DNA of 64,000 bases from Bacilli bacterium (GCA_017460745.1 JAFUAL010000042.1:14983-78982), one strand, 5' to 3'; shown: positions 10,325-44,229, counted from the first letter of the stretch. Notes: generated from the letters alone by a model not told the origin. A program made the numbers and translations.

Positions 10325-13300
10325 ATGAAAAGATATTTTGTAATATTCAATTTATTATTCTTTTTATTAATAATTGACACTCATGCTTTAACTTATAATG
10401 AAATAAAATCAAGAACCACTTGTGCAAATTTTGAACTTGCAGAGGCTAGAAGTGATAAAAGTTTAAATCATAAACAATGTTTTAATACCTATGATGAAGC
10501 TAAAAATGCCATGAATAGTACTAATAATGATGATTTAGTAATTCTTGAAAGAAGTAATAACGTAACAAGAATAATAGATGCTAAATATGCTTTAGTTTAT
10601 ATGGATATTGGAGAAGAGTTAACATACTATTATAGTTATAATAATTTAACTGGTTATATAACGTATATGAATCATTCAGCAAACTATGGTGCAACAGATG
10701 GAGTATTTTTAGAACTTAATTATTCAAATCATGCTATTAAAGTTAAAATAAATGGAGTTGTTGGATGGACTAGAGATGGTAATTATAAAATTGTACCCCT
10801 TAATTTTTTAGGTACAACGTCATATTATCAAGTAACAGATGATAGTCTAAATCATTTTTATGCCAAAGATATTCAAACAACTTATTCCAGTTATTCAAGA
10901 AGTCTTGATAAAAAGCCAAGTATGTTAAATACTGGAAAATATTATAGTTATGATGGAATTTACTTTTATTCAGATTTAAAAAAATTAATAACTGATTATA
11001 AAAATGGTAATTACAATAATAGTAGTAATAAAGATAATCCATATTATAATTATTATATGTATTTACCTCATAGAGGAAGAAGTAATTATACAGCTGATGA
11101 TATTGATGCTTATTTAAAAAATACCAAGAATTTAATTGGTACCATCTATGGAAGACAGTATGTTAGTAGATATTCTAATATGTGGGCTAGTGGAATATTC
11201 TTTAAGTCAAGTGAAACATTGTATGGTGGAAATGCTATTTTGATGATGTCTTTAGCAACAAATGAAAGTGCTCTTGGGCAAAGTCGAATTGCAATAGATA
11301 AAAATAATTTATTTGGTCATGCAGCTTATGATTCAAGTGCCTATGATTCAGCAACTGGTTATTTAAATCCTTATCAAAGTATTTTAGGACATGCAAAAAG
11401 TTATATTAATTGTGGCTATGCAAATCCTAATGATTCAAGATATCGTGGTTCTAATATGGGTGATAAATCAAGTGGTATGAATATTATGTACGCAAGTGAT
11501 CCATATTGGGGAGAAAAAGCTGCTAATTATTACTATTTATTTGATAAAGATAATGGCTTTTTAGATTATAATTATTATCAACTTGGAATTACAAATATTG
11601 ATAGTGTTAATGTTCGAAGCGAACCAAATTTAACCAGTAGTATCCCATTTAATTTAAAATATAAAAATGTTCCAGTTATAATACTTGGAGAGGTCAATGG
11701 AACAAATGTTAATGGAAGTACTAAATGGTATAAAATAGTAAGTGATGCTAATTTAACAGTTGATAGAACAAGTATTCAATCATGTAGTTATACAAATTAC
11801 TATAACTATAATTCATATGTTTATGTTCATTCGTCATTTATTAATAAAATAAACACCTCTAGTAATGGACAATATAACACAAATAGTAATTTAAATGATA
11901 AAGATATTAAATATCAGGAATATTCAAGTGGAGCAGTTTATAAACCTAAAACAGCTTTGATAAATAAAAGTACAGAAGTATATGATACAGCAACTTTAAG
12001 TGTTAAAACTGGAATTACTGCAAAAGAAAATGTTTTAGTTCCTGTATTTATGGAAGCAAGTCTTGATGGAAGGGTAGTTGCTTATTTAATTGAAACAGAT
12101 TTTAGTAAAAATCAAAAAGGTTGGGTTGAAGCAAGTTCTTTAACGTTTAAAGAAAAAGATTTATTAAAAGTAAATGTAACTAATATTGGTTCATCAATAA
12201 GTACATTTAATACACCTGGTGGAAGTAGTGTTGGAAGTTTATATGATCAAACATATGCCGTTATTATAGATTCTAAAACATATAATAATGAATTGTGGAT
12301 TCAAATTGATTATTCTTTAAGTAATAATAAAACTTGGGTTAATACTAATGTTTCAACATCGGTTGGTTCATTAGAATATACTCTAAATAATATAGGAGAT
12401 AAAGAGCCCGTTATTAATGCATCAGATATTACTTTACTTATAAATTCGGAATTTAATCCTGTAGAAAATGTCAAAGCAAATGATGAAGAAGATGGAGATA
12501 TAACATCTAATGTAAAAGTTATTAGCAATAATGTGAATACATCTAAAATTGGAACATATGAAGTAACATATCAAGTAACTGATTCTAAAAATCATAATAT
12601 TTCCAAAACTATAAAAGTATATGTTGTTGATTTTAATTATGGAGACCCTTTATTCTACTTTGAATCATTAAAGCATGTAAGTGACACTAAATTTGAAGTT
12701 AAAGGATTTATTGGTGTTAAAGGAATGAATAATACAAATACATATCATACGATTGCCTTCATTAATGAACAAGATATAACTGATATATATGAATTTGAAT
12801 TAGAAGATTACTCTGATTATCCATTTGAAATGTCTAGTTTAGATGATACAACAAAATATAATTACTCTAAGGGGTGGTTTAAAGGTACAGTCGATTTAAA
12901 CAAAGAAAATATTCCTGAAGGAAATTATTATGTTTTTGTAAGTGCCTATGATTTTGATACTGGTTATTTTACAATAGATAACTTTACTAATATTGCCTAT
13001 ATTGATATGCCAAGAAGAGTAAAAGCAAATACAAGAGGAATATCATTTGATATCGATTATAGTACGTCTGGCAGTCCAATGCTTGTAAGTATTCGTGATA
13101 GAGGTTTAATTAGTTATACTGAACCAACTTCATTTGATCCAACTTATAATTTCTTTAATGAATTAAGTTTGGATAATAATAACTTAAGTATTACAGGAAC
13201 AAGTCACAGTGCTTATGTTAGTTATTCTAAAAATGACGATATAAAACGTGAACTAATATTTGAAAATACAGATAATTTTGAAAGAATAAGTTATGATTTA

Positions 13301-22693: not shown

Positions 22694-23421
22694 ATGTGGG
22701 AACTTTTAGAAAAATTTAATTACATGTTATTAACGAGTCCTATATACTGGACATTAATTATTGTATGTATTATTATAATATTTGTAGGTACCAAATATTA
22801 TAATGAAATAATTGGCTGGTTTGGAGAAAAATGGACACGTAAAGAACTTAATAAATTAGATAAAAGTAAATATGTAATTTTAAACGATATGATGATTTTA
22901 GTAAAAATAAAACATACCAAATAGATCATATTGTATTATTAAAATATGGAATTTTTGTTATTGAAACCAAACAGTTTAATGGTTATATTACAGGTGAAAA
23001 GTATGATAATAAGTGGGTAAGACATTTAAAAGGAAATAAAAAAATTTATTATAGCAATCCTATAAGACAAAATTATGGTCATGTTAAAGCAATATGTGAA
23101 TTATTAAATATTAATGAAGATAAAGTATTTAATATTGTATGCATAACTAGTAATGCTAAATTAAATATTAAACATGATGGAGAAATAATATTAATAAAAA
23201 AATAATTTATTATTGAATTAAAAAATAAAATAATTATTAACAACATAGTCGATAAAAATAAAAGAAAAGAACCTGTTGAAGTGATAAATAAAACAAAAAT
23301 GAAATATGATATTAATACTTGTCCTAAATGTGGTGGTATTTTAGTAGAAAGAAAAAGTGAATATGGTAAATTTATTGGTTGCAATAATTATCTTAAAATG
23401 TAAATATACTAGAAAAATATA
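22694..23421 (+). pseudogene. NERD-domain nuclease with C-terminal topoisomerase-type zinc ribbon, inactivated by three lesions
   Basis: Frame 2 gives the TM helix plus GEKWTRKELNKL...YVILNDMMILVK, then a stop at 22922. Frame 1 continues KTYQIDHIVLLKYGIFVIETKQFNGYITG...NPIRQNYGHVKAI (NERD core). There is an in-frame TAA at 23203. CPKCGGILVERKSEYGKFIGCNNYLK then breaks at an A-run; removing one A restores ...YLKCKYT. Confidence 0.8.
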
Positions 23422-34410: not shown

Positions 34411-34640
34411 AGTATCATACCTCTATAAATATTATACTATAAAACCAATCCATTTTTTGTATTTTTTCACTTTTACATTTCCTATTATATAAACTTTGAT
34501 AAACTATGATAAATTATTAATGTCCACAAAACCTTATTTTATAAGGAATCTAAATTTTCGTATAAGTAATAATTCGTGCGGGGGGTGGCCCCTCTGAAGA
34601 GAGCAAAATAATTTTTCAACAATTATTTTGTTATGCATAC

Positions 34641-34704
34641 AATAATATGGGTGAATTAATTATATATGAATAATGGATACAGAATAGTTGTTGATGCGGG
34701 ACAC
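34641..34704 (+). repeat. Direct repeat copy 1: non-functional duplicate of the amidase gene 5' end
   Basis: AATAATATGGGTGAATTAATTATATATGAATAATGGATACAGAATAGTTGTTGATGCGGGACA matches 37389-37451 with 1 indel and 2-3 substitutions. The indel creates a stop (MGELIIYE*). Confidence 0.9.
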
Positions 34705-34760
34705 CTAAATACGAAGTTCCCCAAATTAAAGATATAACAAATATTAAGTCTATAAATGTA

Positions 34761-34789
34761 AAGATACTTGGGAGAGTATCTTTTTTTTT
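34761..34789 (+). terminator. Hairpin + T9 run just inside the left repeat
   Basis: AAGATACT-tgggag-AGTATCTT followed by TTTTTTTTT. No intact gene lies upstream on this strand, so it is probably a relic. Confidence 0.55.
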
Positions 34790-34815
34790 GTATAATAATT
34801 TTGGAGTTGATTAGT

Positions 34816-35661
34816 ATGAAATTGAATTATCGATTAATAAAAATAAGTTGTATAGTAATGGTGATAACGTTGTGTATTACTTCTATATTAACTTTTGCCT
34901 GTACTCAAAATAGAGTTATTATTTATATTAGTAATATTCTTTTGAATATTTTTGCTGGTGCTGTTATTTTGTTTATAACATCACTTGTTGAATATTTTGC
35001 TAGTAGAAAAAAAGATTTGGAAACTCTTATGAAATTTATTCTTGATTACCGAAATAAATTTTCTAAAATTAAATATTTGGAGGAAGTTAAATTATTAAAT
35101 CATGATGAATACAAGAAAAAATTTAATAAGGACGATAGTAATGTAGAATTACTTTTGAAAGTAGGTAATGAGTGTGATGAATATAATAAAGGATTAATAA
35201 AAAACTTTGATAAGACTATAGATGCATATATAGATATTTCAAAAATAAATTTTAATGATTTTTGGGATATTTATGCAGATTTACGTTTTATATTTAATAA
35301 TAAAAAAAATAATTTAAAACTTTATAATGAAATTTTTAAATATATATATGATGAAGCAAATTTAATTAGAGAATTATCTTACCATTTAAACATCTACAAA
35401 ACATCTGATGTTAATCCTATTGTTATGTATGATAAAATAAGAAAATATCAAAATCATATTTTTTATGAAAAAGAATTAATGCCCGGAGAGAAATTGAATA
35501 AAAAGAATATGGAATTGATTAAAAGCGGAATTTCTTATCAAACAACATGGCGAAAAGACAAAAGTTCATTTTTTGTATACAATAAAATGACAAAATATTT
35601 AGATGAACAGTATGATAATGTTGGAAAGATAGCATATTTTAATAACGATTATAAAAATTAA
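34816..35661 (+). CDS. Hypothetical membrane protein (2 N-terminal TM helices + helical soluble domain)
   Basis: Start at ATG 34816 (RBS GGAG at 34803; the track TTG start at 34768 was rejected). TM helices IKISCIVMVITLCITSILTFA and IIYISNILLNIFAGAVILFITSLV. No motif recognised. Confidence 0.65.
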   Translation: MKLNYRLIKISCIVMVITLCITSILTFACTQNRVIIYISNILLNIFAGAVILFITSLVEYFASRKKDLETLMKFILDYRNKFSKIKYLEEVKLLNHDEYKKKFNKDDSNVELLLKVGNECDEYNKGLIKNFDKTIDAYIDISKINFNDFWDIYADLRFIFNNKKNNLKLYNEIFKYIYDEANLIRELSYHLNIYKTSDVNPIVMYDKIRKYQNHIFYEKELMPGEKLNKKNMELIKSGISYQTTWRKDKSSFFVYNKMTKYLDEQYDNVGKIAYFNNDYKN

Positions 35662-35709
35662 TTAAATAATTTTGTAAAAAAATATGGTGATATAATTTGA
35701 GGTGTAATA

Positions 35710-36744
35710 ATGAATTTAACTGAATTAAATACAATTTTGGTGGCATCAGAATTAAAGTCGCTTTACAGTATTACAAAAGGAATTATTAATTGTGAAAATA
35801 ATTCTATAGTAAGCTTAGGATTTTTCAATTATGTAATCTTATTATCAGTAGAGATATGTGATTATGCAAATGAAACATATGGTGATAAGTTAACTTATAA
35901 ATATAAAAGAAAAATAAAAGAATGTAGAGCTAGAATTAAAGAATATAATATTGAATCTAGTGAAATATTAGCATTAATTGAAAAGACAAATGTGGAATCA
36001 ATAGATTATTTTTATAAAGATTTATCTAAATTAGTTCAAATGATATTTGGCTCTTTGATAACTAATTTAGGAATCTATAAATATAACGATAAAATTATTT
36101 CTAATACTTTTTTAATATCAAAGGACTTAAAACCTATTATTTATAATGATAGAAAAATTGATAAAAAAAGAATAAAAGAAGTATCAACTTCGTTAGGAAT
36201 GTTATTAAATACTTTATATTTAATTTTTTATAAAGATGTTCAAGTTCAAGCAAATGTTAATATTAAGTATAATTTTGTTTTAGAAGATTACAATGTTAGA
36301 AAAAAAAATAATTTACTTAATCCAAAAATAAATAATAATGAAGCATTATTTTTTTTAGATATATTGTCAATTTTAAATTTCTGTAAAGAAATTATATATT
36401 ATTTTGAAATATGTGATGAATTGAAATATCGAATTTTTTATTTGGCATTTTATAGAACGTATCATAATACCATTAAACTCGTTGAAAAAGATGATAAATA
36501 TCTGAATATAAATAATATATTAAAAAAATACTATAACTTGGATAATAAAGTATTTAGAAATGCAATGTTTCATTATAATATAACAGATAAAATTAATAGT
36601 AATGAAATTAAATTTGATCAAATGTATTATGGAATAATTTTTAAGTATTTAAAAATGAGTGATATTGAATATAAAAAAAGTATAATAAATTATTTTACAG
36701 AGCTTTCCTCAGCTATATCGAATATAATTTTATTCAAAAAGTAA
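35710..36744 (+). CDS. Predicted HEPN-type (Rx4H) helical protein, Abi-like
   Basis: All-helical 344-aa protein with FRNAMFHYN near the C-terminus (R283-x4-H288, nt 36556-36573), the RNxxxH form of the HEPN RNase motif as in the Abi_2/AbiD-F families. RBS GAGGTG upstream. Confidence 0.55.
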   Translation: MNLTELNTILVASELKSLYSITKGIINCENNSIVSLGFFNYVILLSVEICDYANETYGDKLTYKYKRKIKECRARIKEYNIESSEILALIEKTNVESIDYFYKDLSKLVQMIFGSLITNLGIYKYNDKIISNTFLISKDLKPIIYNDRKIDKKRIKEVSTSLGMLLNTLYLIFYKDVQVQANVNIKYNFVLEDYNVRKKNNLLNPKINNNEALFFLDILSILNFCKEIIYYFEICDELKYRIFYLAFYRTYHNTIKLVEKDDKYLNINNILKKYYNLDNKVFRNAMFHYNITDKINSNEIKFDQMYYGIIFKYLKMSDIEYKKSIINYFTELSSAISNIILFKK

Positions 36745-36936
36745 ATAAAATTATAACTTTTTTACCAAAAATATAAATTATATTTTTGTAATAGCAAGCA
36801 CTGAATTTGTACACGCACAAAATTCGCTTGATGGGACTTGAATTTAAATAATAATCAAGTTACTACAGGGTCGCTTTAATTATAAATACGAAAAGTTGTT
36901 TCTTTGAATTTCTATTAGTAATATTTATATAAGTAA

Positions 36937-36999
36937 AAAAGACTATCATTTTTATTGAACCAATATTTCAATAAAGTTGATAGTCTTTTAATTTTTTTA
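36937..36999. terminator. Long compound hairpin (12 bp + 8 bp stems), bidirectional terminator
   Basis: AAAAGACTATCA (36937-36948) pairs with TGATAGTCTTTT (36978-36989). The inner stem is TTATTGAA (36952-36959) with TTCAATAA (36967-36974). T-runs are present on both strands. It overlaps the stop of the minus-strand ORF. Confidence 0.65.
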
Positions 37000-37309
37000 T
37001 TTGTTCATCTTTTAATATATGTTCTTCAATACTTGGATCATATTCTAGTTTTAAATATCCAAGTAATTCATTTATATTTTTAATTAATTTTTTTGATGTT
37101 TCATCTAATTTATTATTCTTTTTTAAATGTTTTTCTAAATCATCAACATAATCTTGTAAATCTATATCAAGATGTCTTCTTTTATCAACTTCATGTAATA
37201 CTATTTTGTTAGCATATTCATGATCTTGAACTTTTTTATAATATCTTTTATAATTTACAATTACATTATTATCACTATGTTCAACTAAATCTTCTGAGTA
37301 TCCAACCAT
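36968..37309 (-). CDS. Small acidic/basic helical ORF (113 aa), possibly a gene fragment
   Basis: ORF only; no convincing RBS upstream (…AAACTGGCTAAAATG). Its 5' end abuts the right direct repeat at 37389. Confidence 0.3.
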   Translation of the reverse strand: MVGYSEDLVEHSDNNVIVNYKRYYKKVQDHEYANKIVLHEVDKRRHLDIDLQDYVDDLEKHLKKNNKLDETSKKLIKNINELLGYLKLEYDPSIEEHILKDEQIKKLKDYQLY

Positions 37310-37388
37310 TTTAGCCAGTTTTTTTAAAATCTAAATTTAGATATTTTTTGAACGATTTTAAAGTAACTTTTATTAAACTAACTCATAA

Positions 37389-37451
37389 AATAATATGGGT
37401 GAATTAATTAATATGAATAATGGATATAGAATAGTTGTTGATGCTGGACAT
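37389..37451 (+). repeat. Direct repeat copy 2 (functional 5' end of the amidase gene)
   Basis: See copy 1 at 34641-34704. Homology starts at AATAATATGGG and ends at GGACA. Flanks are unrelated. Confidence 0.9.
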
Positions 37452-38807
37452 GGAGGAAGTGATCCTGGGGCAGTATCTGGAAATTTAAGAGAAAAGGATT
37501 TTACTTTAAAAGCTGCTAATTATATGTATAATAGATTTAGAGAATTAGGAGTTCCTGTTGCTATTACAAGAAATACGGATGAAACATTAAGCAGAACTGA
37601 AAGACTTAATACTATGAGAAATACATTTGGAAATGATTCTAAAGTAATAGTATTATCAAATCACATAAATGCAGGAGGAGGCGAGGGTGCAGAAGTAGTA
37701 TACCCACTTCGTACTTCTTCAACACTTCCGTCAATGATTTTAGAAGAAATTGGTAATCGTGGTCAAATAAAAAGAAAGTATTATCAAAGAGTACTTCCAG
37801 AAAATCCAAGTAAGGATTATTATTACATCATGCGTGAAACACCAAATACAACAGCTTTATTAATTGAATATGGGTTCATTGATAATCCAAATGACCAAAG
37901 AAAATTACAAAATAATTTACTTGAATATGTAGAAGGGGTAGTTGAAGCTGTATCAGATTATATTGGAATTAACTACACACCACCTGGCTCTTCTGTACCT
38001 GATACTGACGGACTTTATACGGTTAAAAGAGGAGATACACTTTATTCCATTGCAAGAGAATATAATATAACTGTCAATGAATTAAAAAGTTTAAATGGTT
38101 TAACCAGTAATAACTTAAGCATTGGTCAAACACTTAAAGTACCAAATTTAGAAATACCAGAAGAAATAGAACAAGATGAATACATTGTAAAACAAGGTGA
38201 TACATTATCATCAATTGCAAGAGAGTTTAATACAACTGTAAATGATTTAATAACTTATAATGATCTTCCTACAACAATACTAAGTGTTGGTCAAATTTTA
38301 AGAATTCCAGGAAATCCTTCAAGTGATTTAATTTATATAGTACAACCAGGTGATACTTTATATGCTATTGCTAATAACTATGGTGTAAGTGTCGATGCTA
38401 TAAAGGAGTTAAATAACTTAACAAATAATACTTTAAGTATAGGACAAAATTTGTATATACCAAAAGGAACAACTATAGAAGAAACAGATTATGTTGTTTA
38501 TCAAGTAGAACCAAGTGATACTTTATATAGTATTGCAAGACGTTATAATACAAGTGTTGATGCTATTAAAGACTATAATAATTTAACAAGTAATGTTTTA
38601 ACAATCGGACAGAATCTTCAAATACCTGTTCAAAAAGTACAAACAGAAAATATAACCTATGTAGTAAAAAGAGGCGATACATTATATAAAATAGCAAATG
38701 ACTATGGTGTAACTGTTTTAGATATCATGAATTTGAATAACATGGATTCTACATTACTAAGCATTGGAGAAACTATTTTAATACCAAATCAAAAAGGTGA
38801 TTTTTAA
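37395..38807 (+). CDS. N-acetylmuramoyl-L-alanine amidase (Amidase_3) with five C-terminal LysM repeats
   Basis: VVDAGHGGSDPGAV and LSNHINAGGGEGAEV. Five Y.V..GDTLY.IA LysM units. No signal peptide, so endolysin/CwlC-like. The start could also be ATG 37413. Confidence 0.9.
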   Translation: MGELINMNNGYRIVVDAGHGGSDPGAVSGNLREKDFTLKAANYMYNRFRELGVPVAITRNTDETLSRTERLNTMRNTFGNDSKVIVLSNHINAGGGEGAEVVYPLRTSSTLPSMILEEIGNRGQIKRKYYQRVLPENPSKDYYYIMRETPNTTALLIEYGFIDNPNDQRKLQNNLLEYVEGVVEAVSDYIGINYTPPGSSVPDTDGLYTVKRGDTLYSIAREYNITVNELKSLNGLTSNNLSIGQTLKVPNLEIPEEIEQDEYIVKQGDTLSSIAREFNTTVNDLITYNDLPTTILSVGQILRIPGNPSSDLIYIVQPGDTLYAIANNYGVSVDAIKELNNLTNNTLSIGQNLYIPKGTTIEETDYVVYQVEPSDTLYSIARRYNTSVDAIKDYNNLTSNVLTIGQNLQIPVQKVQTENITYVVKRGDTLYKIANDYGVTVLDIMNLNNMDSTLLSIGETILIPNQKGDF

Positions 38808-38821
38808 TAAGTCACTTTTTT
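38780..38821 (+). repeat. Amidase 3' end + terminator, copy A of a thrice-repeated element
   Basis: AATACCAAATCAAAAAGGTGATTTTTAATAAGTCACTTTTTT. The core AAGGTGATTTTTAATAAGTCAC (38794-38815) recurs at 42409-42430 and 43585-43606. Confidence 0.9.
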
Positions 38822-38934
38822 AATATTGACATATTTATTTAAATAATATATATTGCTATTAACAAGTGGATGATATTCGATAAGTTATTCGAATATGCTA
38901 ATAAAAATATTGTATGAATTAGGTGGTGAATAAG

Positions 38935-39367
38935 ATGGATCAAGATAAAATGCATTTGGTAAATAAATTATTTAATAGTGAAACAATTAGAACAATTTGG
39001 AATAAAGAGCAAGAAAAATATTTTATAAGTATTGTGGATTTAGTTGGATTATTATCAGAAAGTAAAAACAAACATGCATATTGGAGAAAGTTAAAACAGC
39101 GTTTAAAAGAAGAAGGAAATGAAACCATGACAATTTGTCACGCTTTGAAACTAAAAGCGCAAGATGGTAAATATCGTATGACTGATGTAGTTGACATTAA
39201 GGGGAAGTTTAGAATTATTGAATCTGTTCCTAGTAAGAATGCGGAGGTAAAATTGCAGGTAATGCAATAAAAAAATTAGAAAATGAACTTGGTGAAAGCA
39301 TAATTACTAGCGATAATGCACTTAATTATGAGTATGTAGATGAATTAGAAATTGAAATGGAAAAATA
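38935..39367 (+). pseudogene. Bro-N-domain protein, internally deleted and frameshifted
   Basis: FNSETIRTIWNKEQEKYFISIVDLVGLLSES...YWRKLKQRLKEEGNE...LKLKAQDGKYRMTDV is the widespread Bro-N family. The ORF stops at 39270, right after SKNAEVKLQ. The -1 frame continues GNAIKKLENELGESIITSDNAL... (typical C-terminal tail) to 39367. Confidence 0.6.
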
Positions 39368-39410
39368 ACTATATAATTAACAATAATTATATTTATAGGA
39401 GGTATAACAT

Positions 39411-39677
39411 ATGGAAAAAAATATTGAAGAAATAACATTATTATTAATGTATTTAACATCTTGGGAAGAAGATGGATATGTAGCTGATGAGAATGATATG
39501 CCAAAAGAAGCAAAAATTAAAACTTGTTGGAAAGGATATTCATTTGATATTATTAATAAATTAACTGATGATAATTATCTTTATTTTAGTAAATGTAAAA
39601 ACAAATCTATTTCTTTAACTCCAAAAGGAGAAGAATTAGCTAAAAAATTAATCGATAAATATATAAAAAATAAATAG
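39411..39677 (+). CDS. Small DUF6429-like (winged-helix-like) protein
   Basis: ITLLLMYLTSWEE...CWKGYSFDIINKL...SISLTPKGEELAKKLIDKY matches my memory of the DUF6429 family pattern. Confidence 0.55.
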   Translation: MEKNIEEITLLLMYLTSWEEDGYVADENDMPKEAKIKTCWKGYSFDIINKLTDDNYLYFSKCKNKSISLTPKGEELAKKLIDKYIKNK

Positions 39678-39690
39678 GAGGTGACTCAAA

Positions 39691-40890
39691 ATGACTGCAC
39701 CAAAATTAGATTTTTTATTAGAGATATTGGATAATAGAAATAATAATCCTGAAAGTTATGATACTAAGGTAAAAGAAAAAATAAATGAGTTGTATGATTT
39801 GTTAGATAAAATAAAGCCATTATCTGATGATGAATATAAAGTTTTATATTTTAGTGTAGAAAAGGGAAATATTGAAGAATATGGTAATTATGAAGAGTTA
39901 AAAGTAGATGGTGAAGTTGATAGCTACGAAGAATTTAAAACTAGATTTAATGAAGACTACGCAGATGAAATAATGTGGTATAAAATGACTTCTACTAAGT
40001 ATAAAAATTATCGTATGATATCAATTAATTCCAAAACTATAATATATGCTGATATGAATAATGAAAATACAAATTTTGAAGATTATCAATTGCAAGAATT
40101 ATTAGATTTTCTTATAATCAAAGTGAAAGATTGTATTCAAAAACTTGAAGACGAAACTTACAATGATTATATATCAAATAATTATTCTTATAAAAATAGA
40201 TTCGGCGTAATAAAAAGAAATGTGTATTGGAATATATATCCAGATACTAAGAAAAAACTATTAAATGAAATATCACAAGAAGAAATGAACTATTTCATTG
40301 AAAATGCAAGCGATAAAACTAATAATAGAATAAAAAATATGACATCTAGAAAGTATTTTGAATGTGTCGGATTAGTATATGAAAATATAGGTTATGAAAT
40401 AAGTAATTTAACAGATAAAGAACTATATTTAAAATATGCTGATGGTAGAGATGAAGGCTTAAGTAAAATTGATGAGAATAGTAGTCAAGAATTTGATAAA
40501 TGGTATAATGATTATAGCAAGTTTGGAGGACATCCTTGGGAAATTATAAGAGGTCATTCGTTTACTAGAGTTAATTTACAAGTTCACAATGATGATAATG
40601 GATATTATTTATCGCTTGATGGTAATATAATCTTAAGAAAAATTGAAATAGCTAAAATATTTATTGCACTAAATAAAAATAATATACCAGTACAAATATA
40701 TAATGTAAATATAATAAAGAATGCATTTAAGGGTATTGATTATATTGGCATTGTTCCTAATGATATTATGCCAATTGAATGTGGTGGTTATTTTAAAAAA
40801 TACAAACCAACTGAATTTATACATATGGAAGATAATAAAATATTTAAGTACATTGAGTGGGAATTATTAGAAAATATAGAATTAAAATAG
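39691..40890 (+). CDS. Hypothetical protein (399 aa)
   Basis: RBS GGAGGTG upstream, 13-nt gap after the previous gene. No motif recognised. Confidence 0.6.
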   Translation: MTAPKLDFLLEILDNRNNNPESYDTKVKEKINELYDLLDKIKPLSDDEYKVLYFSVEKGNIEEYGNYEELKVDGEVDSYEEFKTRFNEDYADEIMWYKMTSTKYKNYRMISINSKTIIYADMNNENTNFEDYQLQELLDFLIIKVKDCIQKLEDETYNDYISNNYSYKNRFGVIKRNVYWNIYPDTKKKLLNEISQEEMNYFIENASDKTNNRIKNMTSRKYFECVGLVYENIGYEISNLTDKELYLKYADGRDEGLSKIDENSSQEFDKWYNDYSKFGGHPWEIIRGHSFTRVNLQVHNDDNGYYLSLDGNIILRKIEIAKIFIALNKNNIPVQIYNVNIIKNAFKGIDYIGIVPNDIMPIECGGYFKKYKPTEFIHMEDNKIFKYIEWELLENIELK

Positions 40891-40901
40891 AGGAGAAAAA
40901 T

Positions 40902-42341
40902 ATGAAGTATGAAAAGTATTTAATAAAAAAGGGCAAATTAGATTTGTTATCATCTTTAAAATCTTTAGATAAAAATTTACTTAATAAAACATTAAAAGAA
41001 TCTGGAATGAGTAGCCTTGAAGAATTAAAGAATGCAATTATCGAAGAATTTGAAATGAGTTTAGATATGTCAAAAGATGATCAATTTACAAGAATGTATT
41101 TTGAAAGATTACTTAATCATGAAAATTCAGAATGGATGTCAGCATATCAACAAGATATTGAGAATTTTTTAGTTTTTGTGTATGAAAATGGAGATTATTA
41201 TTCTTATTATATTCCAATTGAGATAAAAGAAATAATTAATAGATTACTAGGTAGCATGACTCCAGAAGAAAAATTTAATTTAGAAAATGCTGCTAATACA
41301 CCAATAGTAAAAGATTTAAAAGGACTATTGGATACATTAAGTGTTAGTGACTTGAAACATATCGGTGGATTATTACATGTTAATAGACTAAGTAACAAAC
41401 CTAAAAAAGAACTAGTTAAAATTATTTATAGTGCTCTTACAGATAAGGATAAATTGATAGATGTAATTGAAAGATTTATAGATAAAGAATTTGATTTATT
41501 AAAAGATTTGATGATTAACAAAGGTACTATTCAAAATAATAACATCAATATGGAAACATATCATTTCTTATATATGGTCGGTATAGTTTTCCTATTTAGA
41601 AGAGATAATAAATTTTACGTTTCTATGACTGATGATGTTTACAATACTATGAAAAAAGTAAATTTAAATAGTGTTCAAAAAATAGTAGATGAAAACACAA
41701 AGGTATATAATCTTGTTAGAGCAATGGTTGAATTATATGGTGTATTTTCATATAGTTATTTAGATTATTATTATAGTTTATATTATGGTAACGGTGAAGA
41801 ATTAGATACGCCAAATAATGCATTATTATTTTGTGAGAGAGCAGATAACATAGATATAATTCATACAGAACATAATATGTATTTTATTAATAGAATACTT
41901 GGACAAAAGGAATTTGAACCGTTATTAGATGATATTATCTCAAGACAAGAAAGTATTAAAAGAAAACCAATTAAATTAGAAAAATTACTTAAATACTCAA
42001 ATTATGATTATTACGAAGAAACAGAATCTAAAAATAAATTCAAAAAATATTTAAAAAGAAAAAACATTCCATCTGATACTATTGAAATAATTATAAAAAT
42101 AATTTCTGATATGTATAGACTTGGAAATAATTATATTAGTGCATCAATTGAAATGCTTCAAGATTATGGAGTAGAAGTAACGGAAAATAATATGCAAGAA
42201 ATAATAAAATATTTAATGGATATATATAATAATTCAAGAATTTGGTCTAATAATGGATGGACACCTATTGAAATGAGAAAAAATTATGAAGATATTTTTT
42301 TAAACGAAAATAGTGATAATGTAGATAGTTGTGAGTCGTAA
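40902..42341 (+). CDS. Hypothetical protein (479 aa)
   Basis: Start at ATG 40902 (RBS AGAGGAGAA; the upstream track start at 40857 overlaps the previous gene and was rejected). No motif recognised. Confidence 0.6.
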   Translation: MKYEKYLIKKGKLDLLSSLKSLDKNLLNKTLKESGMSSLEELKNAIIEEFEMSLDMSKDDQFTRMYFERLLNHENSEWMSAYQQDIENFLVFVYENGDYYSYYIPIEIKEIINRLLGSMTPEEKFNLENAANTPIVKDLKGLLDTLSVSDLKHIGGLLHVNRLSNKPKKELVKIIYSALTDKDKLIDVIERFIDKEFDLLKDLMINKGTIQNNNINMETYHFLYMVGIVFLFRRDNKFYVSMTDDVYNTMKKVNLNSVQKIVDENTKVYNLVRAMVELYGVFSYSYLDYYYSLYYGNGEELDTPNNALLFCERADNIDIIHTEHNMYFINRILGQKEFEPLLDDIISRQESIKRKPIKLEKLLKYSNYDYYEETESKNKFKKYLKRKNIPSDTIEIIIKIISDMYRLGNNYISASIEMLQDYGVEVTENNMQEIIKYLMDIYNNSRIWSNNGWTPIEMRKNYEDIFLNENSDNVDSCES

Positions 42342-42378
42342 AAGAAAATATATAGTATATAGTAGCAGGTGTTCTTAT

Positions 42379-42437
42379 GAATATCATGAAATTTAATACC
42401 AAATCAAGAAGGTGATTTTTAATAAGTCACTTTTTTT
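42379..42437 (+). repeat. Copy B: remnant of the amidase 3' end with an internal deletion + terminator
   Basis: GAATATCATGAAATTTAATACCAAATCAAGAAGGTGATTTTTAATAAGTCACTTTTTTT aligns to amidase nt ~38722-38731 joined to ~38777-38821. Confidence 0.85.
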
Positions 42438-42469
42438 ATGTTTAAATTAATAAATTCCTTATATGCATA

Positions 42470-42498
42470 TTGAAACCAAAATAAATGTTTGGTATAAT
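42470..42498 (+). promoter_or_regulatory. Sigma-A-type promoter of the 42.6-43.5 kb single-gene cassette
   Basis: TTGAAA (42470-42475), 17-nt spacer, TATAAT (42493-42498). Confidence 0.6.
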
Positions 42499-42565
42499 AC
42501 TCGTCAAACGAAGTAGCTTATTATTAGAAGTGAAAAACATTTATCAAATAAAGTGGAGAAGTAAT

Positions 42566-43504
42566 ATGGAAAATAGTAAAAATAATAAAAAAATAATTAT
42601 ATTTTTAATGATATTCATTGCATGTTTAATTATAATTAATTTTATTTGCGCATATCCTAAATATGAAATAACTGTAGAGATAATTGTTTGTTTAAGTTTA
42701 TTAACAATTTTGTCATTATCAGAGATGTTTGATGATCTCAGCATACCAAAGGTAATATCATTATCTAAAAATGTAAAAGAGATAAAGAAAGAAAATAATG
42801 ATTTAAAAGATACAAATATAAAATTATTGACACAAATTGCAAGCATTAAGAATTCTAATAGTCAAAATATTTTTCTGCCTAATTCTTTTAGTACTGTTAG
42901 TTCTTCGAATATAGATGATATAAATAAAAATGATGATAAAATTGAATCAGAAGAAAGTGATGTCCAAAGTAATTTAGAAAATAAGGATTATAAGGATTAT
43001 AGAACGCGTCATAAATATAGAAATAATTTAGACGTATTTATGTTAAAAAAAGTATTAGAGTTTAGTAACGATATTCCAAATTGTGATATTCGATATGATG
43101 TTAAGTTAATTAATGACAAAATTAGAGATGATAACATTATGAATAATGAGGTAAGGTTTGATGCATTAAAGTCAACTCCAAATGAAAACATTTTTTATGA
43201 AGTTAAAATTATACCATATCTATTTGATTTTTCTTATCAACTTCATTATATGTTAAGAACAATCGAATTATATAAAGATTATAGTAAAATTCCTTGCAAA
43301 TTGGTTTTAGTTTTACCTAAATTTGAAAAAGAATTAGAAAAAATATTATTTAATACAAGTAGAGATAGATTTTCTATGATTAAAGATAGGATATCAAATA
43401 GATTTGATCCCGCTATAAAAAATCATTTGTTAGAAATAGTGGAAGTAGATGTTTCTAAAGAAGAATTAGACAATTATATTAAAGAAAAAGAAGAATCAAA
43501 GTAA
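42566..43504 (+). CDS. Membrane-anchored coiled-coil protein with a C-terminal PD-(D/E)XK-like motif
   Basis: Start at ATG 42566 (RBS AAGTGGAGA), downstream of the predicted promoter. Two TM helices, then a coiled coil (KEIKKENNDLKDTNIKLLTQIASIKN). The C-terminal VRFDALKSTPNENIFYEVKI gives D-x12-E-x-K. Confidence 0.55.
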   Translation: MENSKNNKKIIIFLMIFIACLIIINFICAYPKYEITVEIIVCLSLLTILSLSEMFDDLSIPKVISLSKNVKEIKKENNDLKDTNIKLLTQIASIKNSNSQNIFLPNSFSTVSSSNIDDINKNDDKIESEESDVQSNLENKDYKDYRTRHKYRNNLDVFMLKKVLEFSNDIPNCDIRYDVKLINDKIRDDNIMNNEVRFDALKSTPNENIFYEVKIIPYLFDFSYQLHYMLRTIELYKDYSKIPCKLVLVLPKFEKELEKILFNTSRDRFSMIKDRISNRFDPAIKNHLLEIVEVDVSKEELDNYIKEKEESK

Positions 43505-43584
43505 TTTAGTTTTCATTTGTATTTTTAATATTTAAGAAAATGAATTTAGAAAATATTATAATTATAATTAAATAAAAACAAAAT

Positions 43585-43612
43585 AAGGTGATTTTTAATA
43601 AGTCACCTTTTT
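43585..43612 (+). terminator. Copy C of the repeated terminator core; right edge of the island
   Basis: AAGGTGA-tttttaataag-TCACCTT perfect 7-bp stem followed by TTTT. Shares the 22-nt core with copies A and B. Confidence 0.65.
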
Positions 43613-43689
43613 AAATACATAAAATGACGTAAAGAAATTGAAAAAAAATATATTTAATGCTATAATCACTATAGAAGGAAGGAATTAAG

Positions 43690-44229
43690 ATGAAAAAAGA
43701 AGAAAACAAGAAAAATAAAAAAAATGATGAAGTTGAAATAAGCTTTAAATTCAATAAGAAAAAATTAGTTCAAGGACTTGGTATTGCTTTAGTTGTAGTA
43801 GCTGTATTAGGACTTGCATTTGCAGTTTCAAATACAACGAGCAAGGATACTAAAGCGTTTGAATTTGTTGACATTACAGTTGATGATTATCTAGAAAAAA
43901 TGAAAGAAAGTGAAAAGTCAGTTATATACGTTGCACGTCCAGGTTGTTCTTGGTGTCAAAAAGAATCACCTATCATAAAAGCACTTGGAGCTCAATATGA
44001 TTTAACAATTTACTATTTAAATACAGATCCATTCTGGGATAGTGAAAATGAAACTTATACAGAAGCAGGACAAAAATTCATGGCATCAGCTGAACAATAT
44101 AAAGATGGATGGGGAACACCTAATACAATCATTGTTCAAAACGGAGAAATAGTTGATGGTGAATTCAGTTACGTTGAAAAAAGTGCATTAAAAGATTTAT
44201 TTAAGAGAAATGGATTTATAAATGGATAA
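43690..44229 (+). CDS. Membrane-anchored thioredoxin-fold protein (CxxC)
   Basis: TM helix GLGIALVVVAVLGLAFAV. Active-site-like RPGCSWCQKESP. Confidence 0.75.
   Translation: MKKEENKKNKKNDEVEISFKFNKKKLVQGLGIALVVVAVLGLAFAVSNTTSKDTKAFEFVDITVDDYLEKMKESEKSVIYVARPGCSWCQKESPIIKALGAQYDLTIYYLNTDPFWDSENETYTEAGQKFMASAEQYKDGWGTPNTIIVQNGEIVDGEFSYVEKSALKDLFKRNGFING

Follow-up and report, generated by a model that had tools for sequence, protein, structure and literature searches.

Stranded cargo of large serine recombinase islands probably accounts for duplicated amidase gene ends in a Bacilli bacterium

Large serine recombinase (LSR) islands that lie at a fixed codon inside a chromosomal gene are known from the Firmicutes: skin in sigK, SPbeta in spsM and gin in gerE. 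In displacement arrays, such as those formed by C-terminal displacement in Rhs and contact-dependent inhibition (CDI) genes and the orphan immunity arrays of Vibrio cholerae type VI secretion system (T6SS) clusters, a conserved gene acts as the homology anchor, the join at the other end is illegitimate and older material is pushed downstream as a string of orphans (PMC5361080). Tandem islands bounded by repeats of a gene 3′ end form another class, which includes the Dehalococcoides ssrA islands with DsiB, the staphylococcal cassette chromosome elements (SCCmec and pseudo-SCC) at rlmH and cis-mobilizable accretion (PMC3146451). Here we analyse a stretch of 64,000 nucleotides from a Bacilli bacterium (GCA_017460745.1, JAFUAL010000042.1:14983-78982), called the window below, in which a gene for an N-acetylmuramoyl-L-alanine amidase is followed by two gene cassettes, each closed off by a further copy of the amidase 3′ end, and is preceded by a copy of its 5′ end. 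With somewhat better than even confidence, we read this locus as the stranded cargo of LSR islands, separated by orphaned amidase ends that were trimmed back to the terminator.

LSR islands with defence-type cargo insert at two fixed sites inside the amidase gene in many genera. In G003, G005, G007, G019 and G087, 7-13 kb separate an N-terminal amidase fragment (up to about residue 96-101) from the remainder (from about residue 87-95), and in G017 the two pieces are on separate contigs. This position, site 2, corresponds to the codons for SNHINAGGG (motif SNHxNAGGG, around codon 95). The inserts found there share a protein of 510-550 aa with Resolvase, Recombinase and Zn_ribbon_recom domains, that is, an LSR, and their cargo is of defence type (AspBHI-, Z1- and Dcm-like genes, a Schlafen-type helicase, Fic and DUF4238). 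Site 1 corresponds to the codons for DAGHGG, around codon 17. It is used by a second LSR family (530 aa, with a DUF4368 domain), whose gene precedes, by 34 bp, an amidase gene cut off at about codon 17 and which was seen in L040-L047 as well as in G017 and G019; in the last two genomes both sites are occupied. A survey of the catalytic domain in 151 family genomes, nearly all of different genera, gave a match in 131, and dozens of the fragments listed end or start at codons 86-102. In the window, the amidase gene (37395-38807, + strand; Amidase_3 and five LysM domains according to Pfam) is full-length. Its site 1 (near 37440-37455) and site 2 (near 37664-37700) are both unoccupied, as placed by comparison with the left and right attachment junctions (attL and attR) of L095, L009, L005, L008, L083, L085 and L075.

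In L095, attL and attR have in common an 11-nt core, GGTGGCGATGG, and carry the arms GTTACACATTGA and TCATTGTGTAAC. This core is all that the two junctions share, and the island-derived arms, belonging to the island attachment site (attP), are inverted repeats. In G087, attL reads ...AATGCAGGGGGTGGCGATGG joined to TCATTGTGTAAC... and attR reads ...GTTACACATTGATTATCGGCAGG joined to TGGCGATGGCGCTGAGG.... The sequence-only reading had seen no recombinase here. This is correct for the locus of the present genome, which keeps only a remnant, cassette 0. It does not hold for the relatives, where an insert encoding a protein with Resolvase, Recombinase and zinc-ribbon recombinase domains splits the open reading frame (ORF) at a fixed position, inside the amidase gene and not at its ends.

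After about position 10830, L083 and L085 carry identical flanking genes and the same amidase N-terminal fragment with different site-2 islands, which shows island turnover at site 2 within apparently one lineage. Both target sites lie on codons of conserved Amidase_3 motifs (DAGHGG and SNHxNAGGG, from the junctions of L095, L083, L085 and L075), and targeting of conserved catalytic motif codons may explain why the same gene is struck across many genera. The present genome has other LSR genes, on contigs C11 (25704-27293), C22 (48713-50302) and C64 (4-1419); two of these are about 60% identical over 175 residues to the site-1 LSR of G017 and G019, and one is about 42% identical to the site-2 family.

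Cassette 0 lies upstream of the gene, behind a duplicate of the amidase 5′ end that had been noticed at 34.6 kb and is real: 34636-34703 matches 37384-37450 at about 94-95% identity. This orphaned start (+ strand) comprises the ribosome-binding site and codons 1-19, breaks at the DAGH codons and ends exactly at site 1, forming the chromosomal arm of a site-1 attL. In G017, G019 and L040-L047, the LSR gene abuts an amidase truncated at this same codon. Cassette 0 (34704-37366, + strand) is a decayed LSR island and the 34.6-kb duplicate is its left junction. Its left end (34714-34799, 86 nt) is 95% identical to that of the site-1 island of L046. Two cargo genes follow (34816-35661 and 35710-36744), then a truncated HTH_3 repressor gene on the minus strand (36989-37366), 90% identical to the 3′ two-thirds of the HTH_3 gene of the L046 island (79% over 113 aa for the protein relic). 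The recombinase module has been deleted: the HTH_36 and LSR genes of the island are gone, and no LSR relic was detected in cassette 0.

On its right side, cassette 0 ends in an illegitimate junction. A three-way comparison of the present genome (G000), L046 and L004 (G011) places it at 37360-37366 (+ strand), where the microhomology AAAGTAA lies between the repressor relic and the restored amidase upstream region; homology to L046 stops where homology to the G011 amidase upstream region starts. Moreover, the two alleles differ: the region upstream of the full-length amidase gene resembles G011, and the flank upstream of the orphaned start is homologous to the amidase upstream region of G003. 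Because such a junction is the product expected of a homologous crossover in the gene body together with an illegitimate join in the island, we infer that an intact allele was imported, that the recombinase module was lost and that the two cargo genes were stranded. The same pattern was observed in G009, where an N-terminal fragment and an insert without a site-2 LSR homolog precede a full-length amidase gene, and in L087, where a frameshifted LSR gene and an attR relic do so.

Compared with the gene-intervening elements of the Firmicutes, the islands of the relatives are alike in lying at a fixed codon with a short crossover core, here at two sites of the amidase gene, and cassette 0 is the remnant of such an island. 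Unlike those systems, the present locus has no recombinase and its gene is intact; stranded cargo and orphaned ends are what remains.

Just upstream of the orphaned start, at 34567-34600, lies a G+C-rich stretch, GTGCGGGGGGTGGCCCCTCTGAAGAGAGC, part of which resembles the G003 upstream region. The elements CATAAAATA (37383-37391) and CATACAATA (34653-34661) precede the two amidase starts, and an AC lies some 17 nt before each; we take these elements to resemble a sigma-K-type mother-cell promoter. The restored amidase unit starts right at the putative −35 element. A transcript-derived copy was considered for this unit, which runs approximately from promoter to terminator (37360-38821), and deletional trimming was judged the better explanation.

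On the 3′ side, a 22-nt core, AAGGTGATTTTTAATAAGTCAC, occurs in three exact copies, all on the + strand, at 38794-38815, 42409-42430 and 43585-43606, as first described from the sequence. None of the window shuffles gave a 22-mer match. In the whole 1.47-Mb genome the 22-mer is found only at these three sites, even with two mismatches allowed. It has no copy in 22 other species of the genus, and exact scans of metagenome, genome and viral collections found none. Copy A (38777-38821, + strand) is where the live amidase gene ends; its 13-bp hairpin and T-run look like a terminator (fold −11.4 kcal/mol, z-score −5.9). Copy B (42392-42436, + strand; fold −11.3 kcal/mol) has a 45-nt block in common with copy A, identical at 44 of the 45 positions and extending over the final ten codons of the amidase gene, its stop codon, hairpin and T-run. 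It is an orphaned gene end, and the shared codons vindicate the view that B is a duplicated gene end and not just a shared terminator. Copy C (43585-43612, + strand; fold −11.1 kcal/mol) is the most reduced and keeps three or four final codons besides the hairpin and T-run. It shares just 28 nt with the other copies and retains the native downstream flank; in the next 17-21 nt or so upstream, a weak likeness (10/17 or 13/21 by hand count of aligned letters) is not clearly above chance. Together with the orphaned start, these copies support the view that recombination has struck repeatedly at either end of the amidase gene.

The hairpins of all copies are 10-13 bp long, with about −11 kcal/mol and z-scores of −4 to −6, and each is followed by a T-run. 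A near-consensus promoter (11/12 consensus positions) stands 5-50 nt past each copy. The boundaries of the repeats are therefore functional elements, a stable hairpin with a T-run on the left and a promoter on the right, which supports the proposal that the ends were trimmed. In L039, the closest other strain (92% nucleotide identity), the hairpin loop has a 1-nt deletion. Additional homology upstream of copy B (ATATCATGAA...), with an internal deletion of about 45 bp, had also been proposed and proved no better than chance: when the 50 nt left of B were compared with the amidase region, 122 of 500 shuffles scored as well or better, and the best alignment fell elsewhere. The idea that B derives from an amidase gene with a large internal deletion, fusing the ribosome-binding site and start codon to the 3′ end, was likewise not above chance and was rejected.

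The native arrangement is seen in relatives. In G011, G002 and G003, the thioredoxin-like gene, bPH and dnaE come directly after the amidase gene. In G010, one radical SAM gene lies between the amidase and thioredoxin-like genes (within about 0.9 kb), and contigs with an 80%-identical amidase have the same two arrangements. The flank to the right of copy C (43613-43689) aligns with the amidase-thioredoxin-like spacer of G011, G003 and G002. Because this flank matches the native spacer of the relatives, 38822-43584 (4.76 kb) is inserted material and C occupies the position of the original terminator. The conserved native spacer and right anchor (43613-44229, + strand) hold the promoter of the thioredoxin-like gene (43638-43666) and the PedC-like thioredoxin-like gene itself, and bPH and dnaE follow. 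The interval had been likened to a hotspot where accessory genes are stacked, and an accessory-gene hotspot it is, being absent from related species, where the amidase gene adjoins the thioredoxin-like gene.

Cassette 1 (38822-42391, + strand) starts with a promoter (38826-38854) and contains a Bro-N relic of PDC-S13 type with an internal deletion (38935-39368), a DUF6429 gene (39411-39677), a 399-aa gene (39691-40890) and a 479-aa gene (40902-42341), as annotated with Pfam, PHROGs, PADLOC and a promoter scan; the Bro-N relic matches the PADLOC candidate defence gene PDC-S13. Cassette 2 (42437-43584, + strand) consists of a promoter region (about 42444-42498) and a gene for a 312-aa membrane protein (42566-43504). 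These contents are as the sequence-only reading gave them.

Judged by their homologs, the cassette genes are of island origin. In G087, the amidase N-terminal fragment is followed by an island whose last genes are HTH_36, LSR, p248, Bro-N and a homolog of the 312-aa gene, and the amidase C-terminal part resumes 12 nt on; Bro-N and the 312-aa homolog are here the terminal cargo of a site-2 island. The same two cargo genes occur in L087, behind the frameshifted LSR gene and ahead of the attR relic and the full-length amidase gene mentioned above. In L056 and G312 the order is full-length amidase gene, post-recombinase promoter, Bro-N, 312-aa homolog and attR relic, and the post-amidase spacer of both is homologous to the promoter region past the L087 LSR gene. 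The cassette 2 promoter (TTGAAA-17-TATAAT) aligns with the promoter that follows the recombinase gene in LSR islands (L056, L087). As for cassette 1, the DUF6429 gene is found inside the site-2 LSR islands of G017 and G019. The 479-aa gene is rare (10 of 301 family genomes, often fragmentary) and adjoins amidase sequence in most of the loci examined: in L062 and L063 it follows a full-length amidase gene, in L070 and, in reverse orientation, in G041 it lies downstream of amidase sequence at a contig start, and in L075-L086 it stands immediately upstream of the site-2-interrupted amidase gene.

Genes of the PDC-S13 Bro-N type and 312-aa homologs are always adjacent (L056 6139-7942; L087 6139-7942; L095 14487-16278), being 10 nt apart in L056 and L087. 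PDC-S13 may really be a two-gene unit, a pair that is broken in the present genome. The amidase gene that precedes the stranded cargo in L056 (4838-6022), and also in G312 and L096, lacks HxNAGGG at site 2 and reads ...ITNGLSSSSVSGVEIIYALR...; its product would be either an inactive enzyme or the gene an eroded target that would block further insertion.

These observations fit a course of events in three steps. An LSR island would first interrupt the amidase gene, more than once in this lineage. An uninterrupted allele would then restore the full-length gene by homology-facilitated illegitimate recombination: a crossover between homologous sequences in the N-terminal part would be paired with an illegitimate microhomology join in the island, to the right of the recombinase gene, so that the recombinase module is removed. 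The terminal cargo of the island and the old C-terminal part with its terminator would finally stay downstream as a redundant fragment. Two such rounds would give the order amidase-A, cassette 1, B, cassette 2, C and native flank, in which C, B and A run from oldest to newest and the oldest layer lies farthest from the gene. A mirror-image event at site 1 would account for cassette 0 and the 34.6-kb orphaned start. Deletions in a reduced genome would then strip non-functional DNA between a terminator on the left and the promoter of the next cassette on the right. Such deletional trimming is our proposed reason for the sharp boundaries, for the survival of only 45 and 28 nt, and for the longer remainder in L062, a locus described next.

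L062 is an independent lineage, with an amidase only 52% identical to that of the present genome. There, the full-length gene precedes the final 24 codons of an LSR gene, then AbiEi and AbiEii, a relic of the 399-aa gene, the 479-aa homolog, a 143-aa gene and a second amidase 3′ end. The LSR relic (IDFVLIDKDRNFEIFYKFSLLNN, up to its stop codon) lies 95 nt past the amidase stop codon. The second 3′ end is that of its own lineage. It takes in the final LysM domain, the stop codon and a further 105 nt or so, with 94.7% identity over 209 nt (about 215-240 nt in alignment). Because L062 has a bracketed cassette of its own, cassettes bracketed by copies of the resident amidase end have arisen at least twice. 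L062 is apparently the younger case, with the LSR relic still at the junction. Between this relic and the AbiEi gene, a tandem repeat, (TATATATTTA)n, occupies part (about 1650-1750) of a 450-nt non-coding stretch. We found no duplicated amidase 3′ end in 12 loci of the genus, in the contigs with the thioredoxin-like gene, or in L056, L066 and L070.

The order of A, B and C and the microhomology junction also fit the displacement arrays. Homology on one side and microhomology on the other is found on the 5′ side (AAAGTAA, 37360-37366); at the 3′ junctions only T-runs and AT-rich sequence are available. The orphan fragments are graded as expected with age, from the intact gene at A to 45 nt at B and 28 nt at C, and the L062 orphan, at 209-240 nt, is presumably younger. 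Unlike in the displacement arrays, the displaced units are cargo of serine recombinase islands and not toxin tips with immunity genes, the orphans are cut down to the terminator and 4-10 codons, and the trigger would be interruption of a gene by an island instead of toxin-type competition.

Several points weigh against stranding followed by trimming. The right edges of A and B agree to the nucleotide, both falling where the T-run ends. B and C retain just 45 and 28 nt, and all three copies have an identical 22-nt core, loop included. Boundaries of this sharpness look more like a specific site than like random decay, and they demand deletional trimming plus recent or selected conservation. Lenient tblastn of cassettes 1 and 2 gave nothing convincing for relics of LSR or other island genes, and the alignment of the sequences past the 479-aa gene and the cassette 2 gene with the LSR attR motif was unconvincing. 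The motif GCAGGTG, which is rare in the window (5 sites, with about 1 expected), occurs at 42365-42371 in cassette 1, where an attR core would be expected; its reading as an attR-core remnant is only suggestive and counts as weak evidence. Neither an uninterrupted donor strain of the species nor an intermediate state was seen. In at least five samples, every near-identical contig carries the same full and final architecture, which also speaks against active mobility; the strain is present in ERZ27256836, ERZ27256833, SRR12529324, SRR12529329, ERZ28019087 and ERZ28655243. Finally, if the islands normally excise to rebuild the gene, as the sporulation-gene elements do, the selective need for restoration becomes less obvious.

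The first alternative is that elements accreted in tandem, in a site-specific manner, at an attachment site in the 3′ end or the terminator of the amidase gene. Elements carrying a replacement gene end would have inserted twice, displacing the earlier ends, and would later have lost their recombinase modules, giving a locus that resembles SCC and pseudo-SCC composites at rlmH, the Dehalococcoides ssrA islands and cis-mobilizable elements. Several features are as this scheme would have them: direct repeats of the target-gene 3′ end stand at every island boundary (A, B and C), their identical core, an imperfect palindrome, bounds two cassettes without recombinase, the right-hand boundaries are all at the same nucleotide, the native flank is present at the last copy only, and LSRs clearly favour this amidase gene. 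A precedent exists in the 20-bp gene-3′-end repeat that bounds tandem islands, some lacking an integration module, whose movement depends on a serine recombinase of the CcrB family (PMC3146451). As in those islands, repeats delimit successive cassettes, some recombinase-less, and the recombinase family involved is of serine type. However, no recombinase-bearing element was found at the amidase 3′ end in any locus examined, the 12 genus loci included, none of which has a duplicated 3′ end; all LSR islands found occupy positions around codons 17 or 95 or lie upstream of the gene, and the cassette genes trace to islands that attach at codon 95 and not at the terminator. The repeats are of unequal length (45 nt, 28 nt and about 215-240 nt in L062), which is not expected of one attachment site, and in G010 and L046 the same spacer harbours a radical SAM gene but no repeat. 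The absence of the 22-mer from the collections searched and the lack of structural variants among the near-identical contigs argue in the same direction. We therefore regard accretion as unlikely, and a dedicated attachment site at the terminator is not supported.

The repeats might instead have been duplicated by general recombination with no recombinase involved, through a Campbell-type single crossover of a circle, or through unequal crossing-over or template switching at the hairpin during capture of foreign DNA. When a circle integrates by a single crossover, the homologous segment ends up on either side of the insert, which is what is seen, and AT-rich hairpins and T-runs supply microhomology. 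The repeats are moreover lineage-specific in both the present genome and L062, and because of this they would have been made in place from resident sequence. Against this stands their length of 28-45 nt, which does not exceed the minimum usually required for efficient RecA-dependent recombination. Nor does such duplication account for the source of the first terminator-bearing circle, for the LSR-island nature of the cargo or for the LSR relic at the L062 junction, and we hold it to be improbable as well.

A bolder proposal is that the terminator hairpin and last codons are a working recombination site, the cassettes bounded by 28-45 nt being moved in trans by a serine recombinase of the genome, or without a dedicated recombinase. 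We give this little credence. If it were true, it would mean that gut Bacilli with reduced genomes have an accretion system for defence cassettes that carry promoters, and the perfect conservation of 22 nt, loop included, would mark a site under selection and not a recent scar. That the copies are a common terminator of unrelated genes, or a chance match, is hardly credible: all three are indeed a hairpin with a T-run at the end of a transcription unit, but a check for such a genome-wide element found the three copies of the genome all at this locus and none in the 22 other species, no shuffle gave a match and A and B share ten codons.

The sequence-only reading had compared the locus to integron-like stacking. 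As in integron cassette arrays, small cassettes are stacked here, each ending in a hairpin-forming repeat. The analogy is not supported beyond this. There is no IntI tyrosine recombinase, attI or common promoter, the array starts at the amidase gene, each cassette has its own promoter, and the repeats are ends of a coding gene found nowhere else in the genome. The ORFs scanned between 20.8 and 44.7 kb yielded no integrase domain. Integron cassettes are mostly promoterless and end in attC sites with the core site GTTRRRY, which the 22-nt core, on direct reading, does not contain. Unlike in the tandem islands with 3′-end repeats, no recombinase island was found at the amidase 3′ end, the repeats are unequal and the LSRs insert near codons 17 and 95. 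The locus is most likely a variant of known processes and not an integron-like system.

The host genome is small, with about 25% G+C. An Mza-type operon, with a Dcm methylase as its guard, and an AspBHI/Mrr-type endonuclease lie upstream of the locus; downstream are the PedC-like thioredoxin-like gene, bPH and dnaE already described. Between the DUF1980 gene and the Mza operon is a gene with frameshifts and stops (22694-23400), which, judged by eye, resembles a NERD-type domain with a zinc-ribbon tail behind it. A prophage endolysin with accessory genes was ruled out, as there are no phage structural genes and the amidase is a chromosomal ortholog with conserved genus neighbours. Within the thioredoxin-like gene, at 43941, contig L035 (16548-17159) departs from the sequence of the window and runs on into unrelated, more G+C-rich DNA; it is probably an assembly chimera and not a strain variant.

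Read as stranded island cargo between trimmed gene ends, the locus gives a picture of a heavily used LSR landing pad after island decay. Defence-type genes would stay chromosomally fixed beside a restored host gene, split by short orphaned gene ends, and this would be one route to defence hotspots without visible mobility genes. Duplicated gene ends trimmed to a promoter or terminator may then serve as a practical signature for finding such graveyards and for dating their layers.

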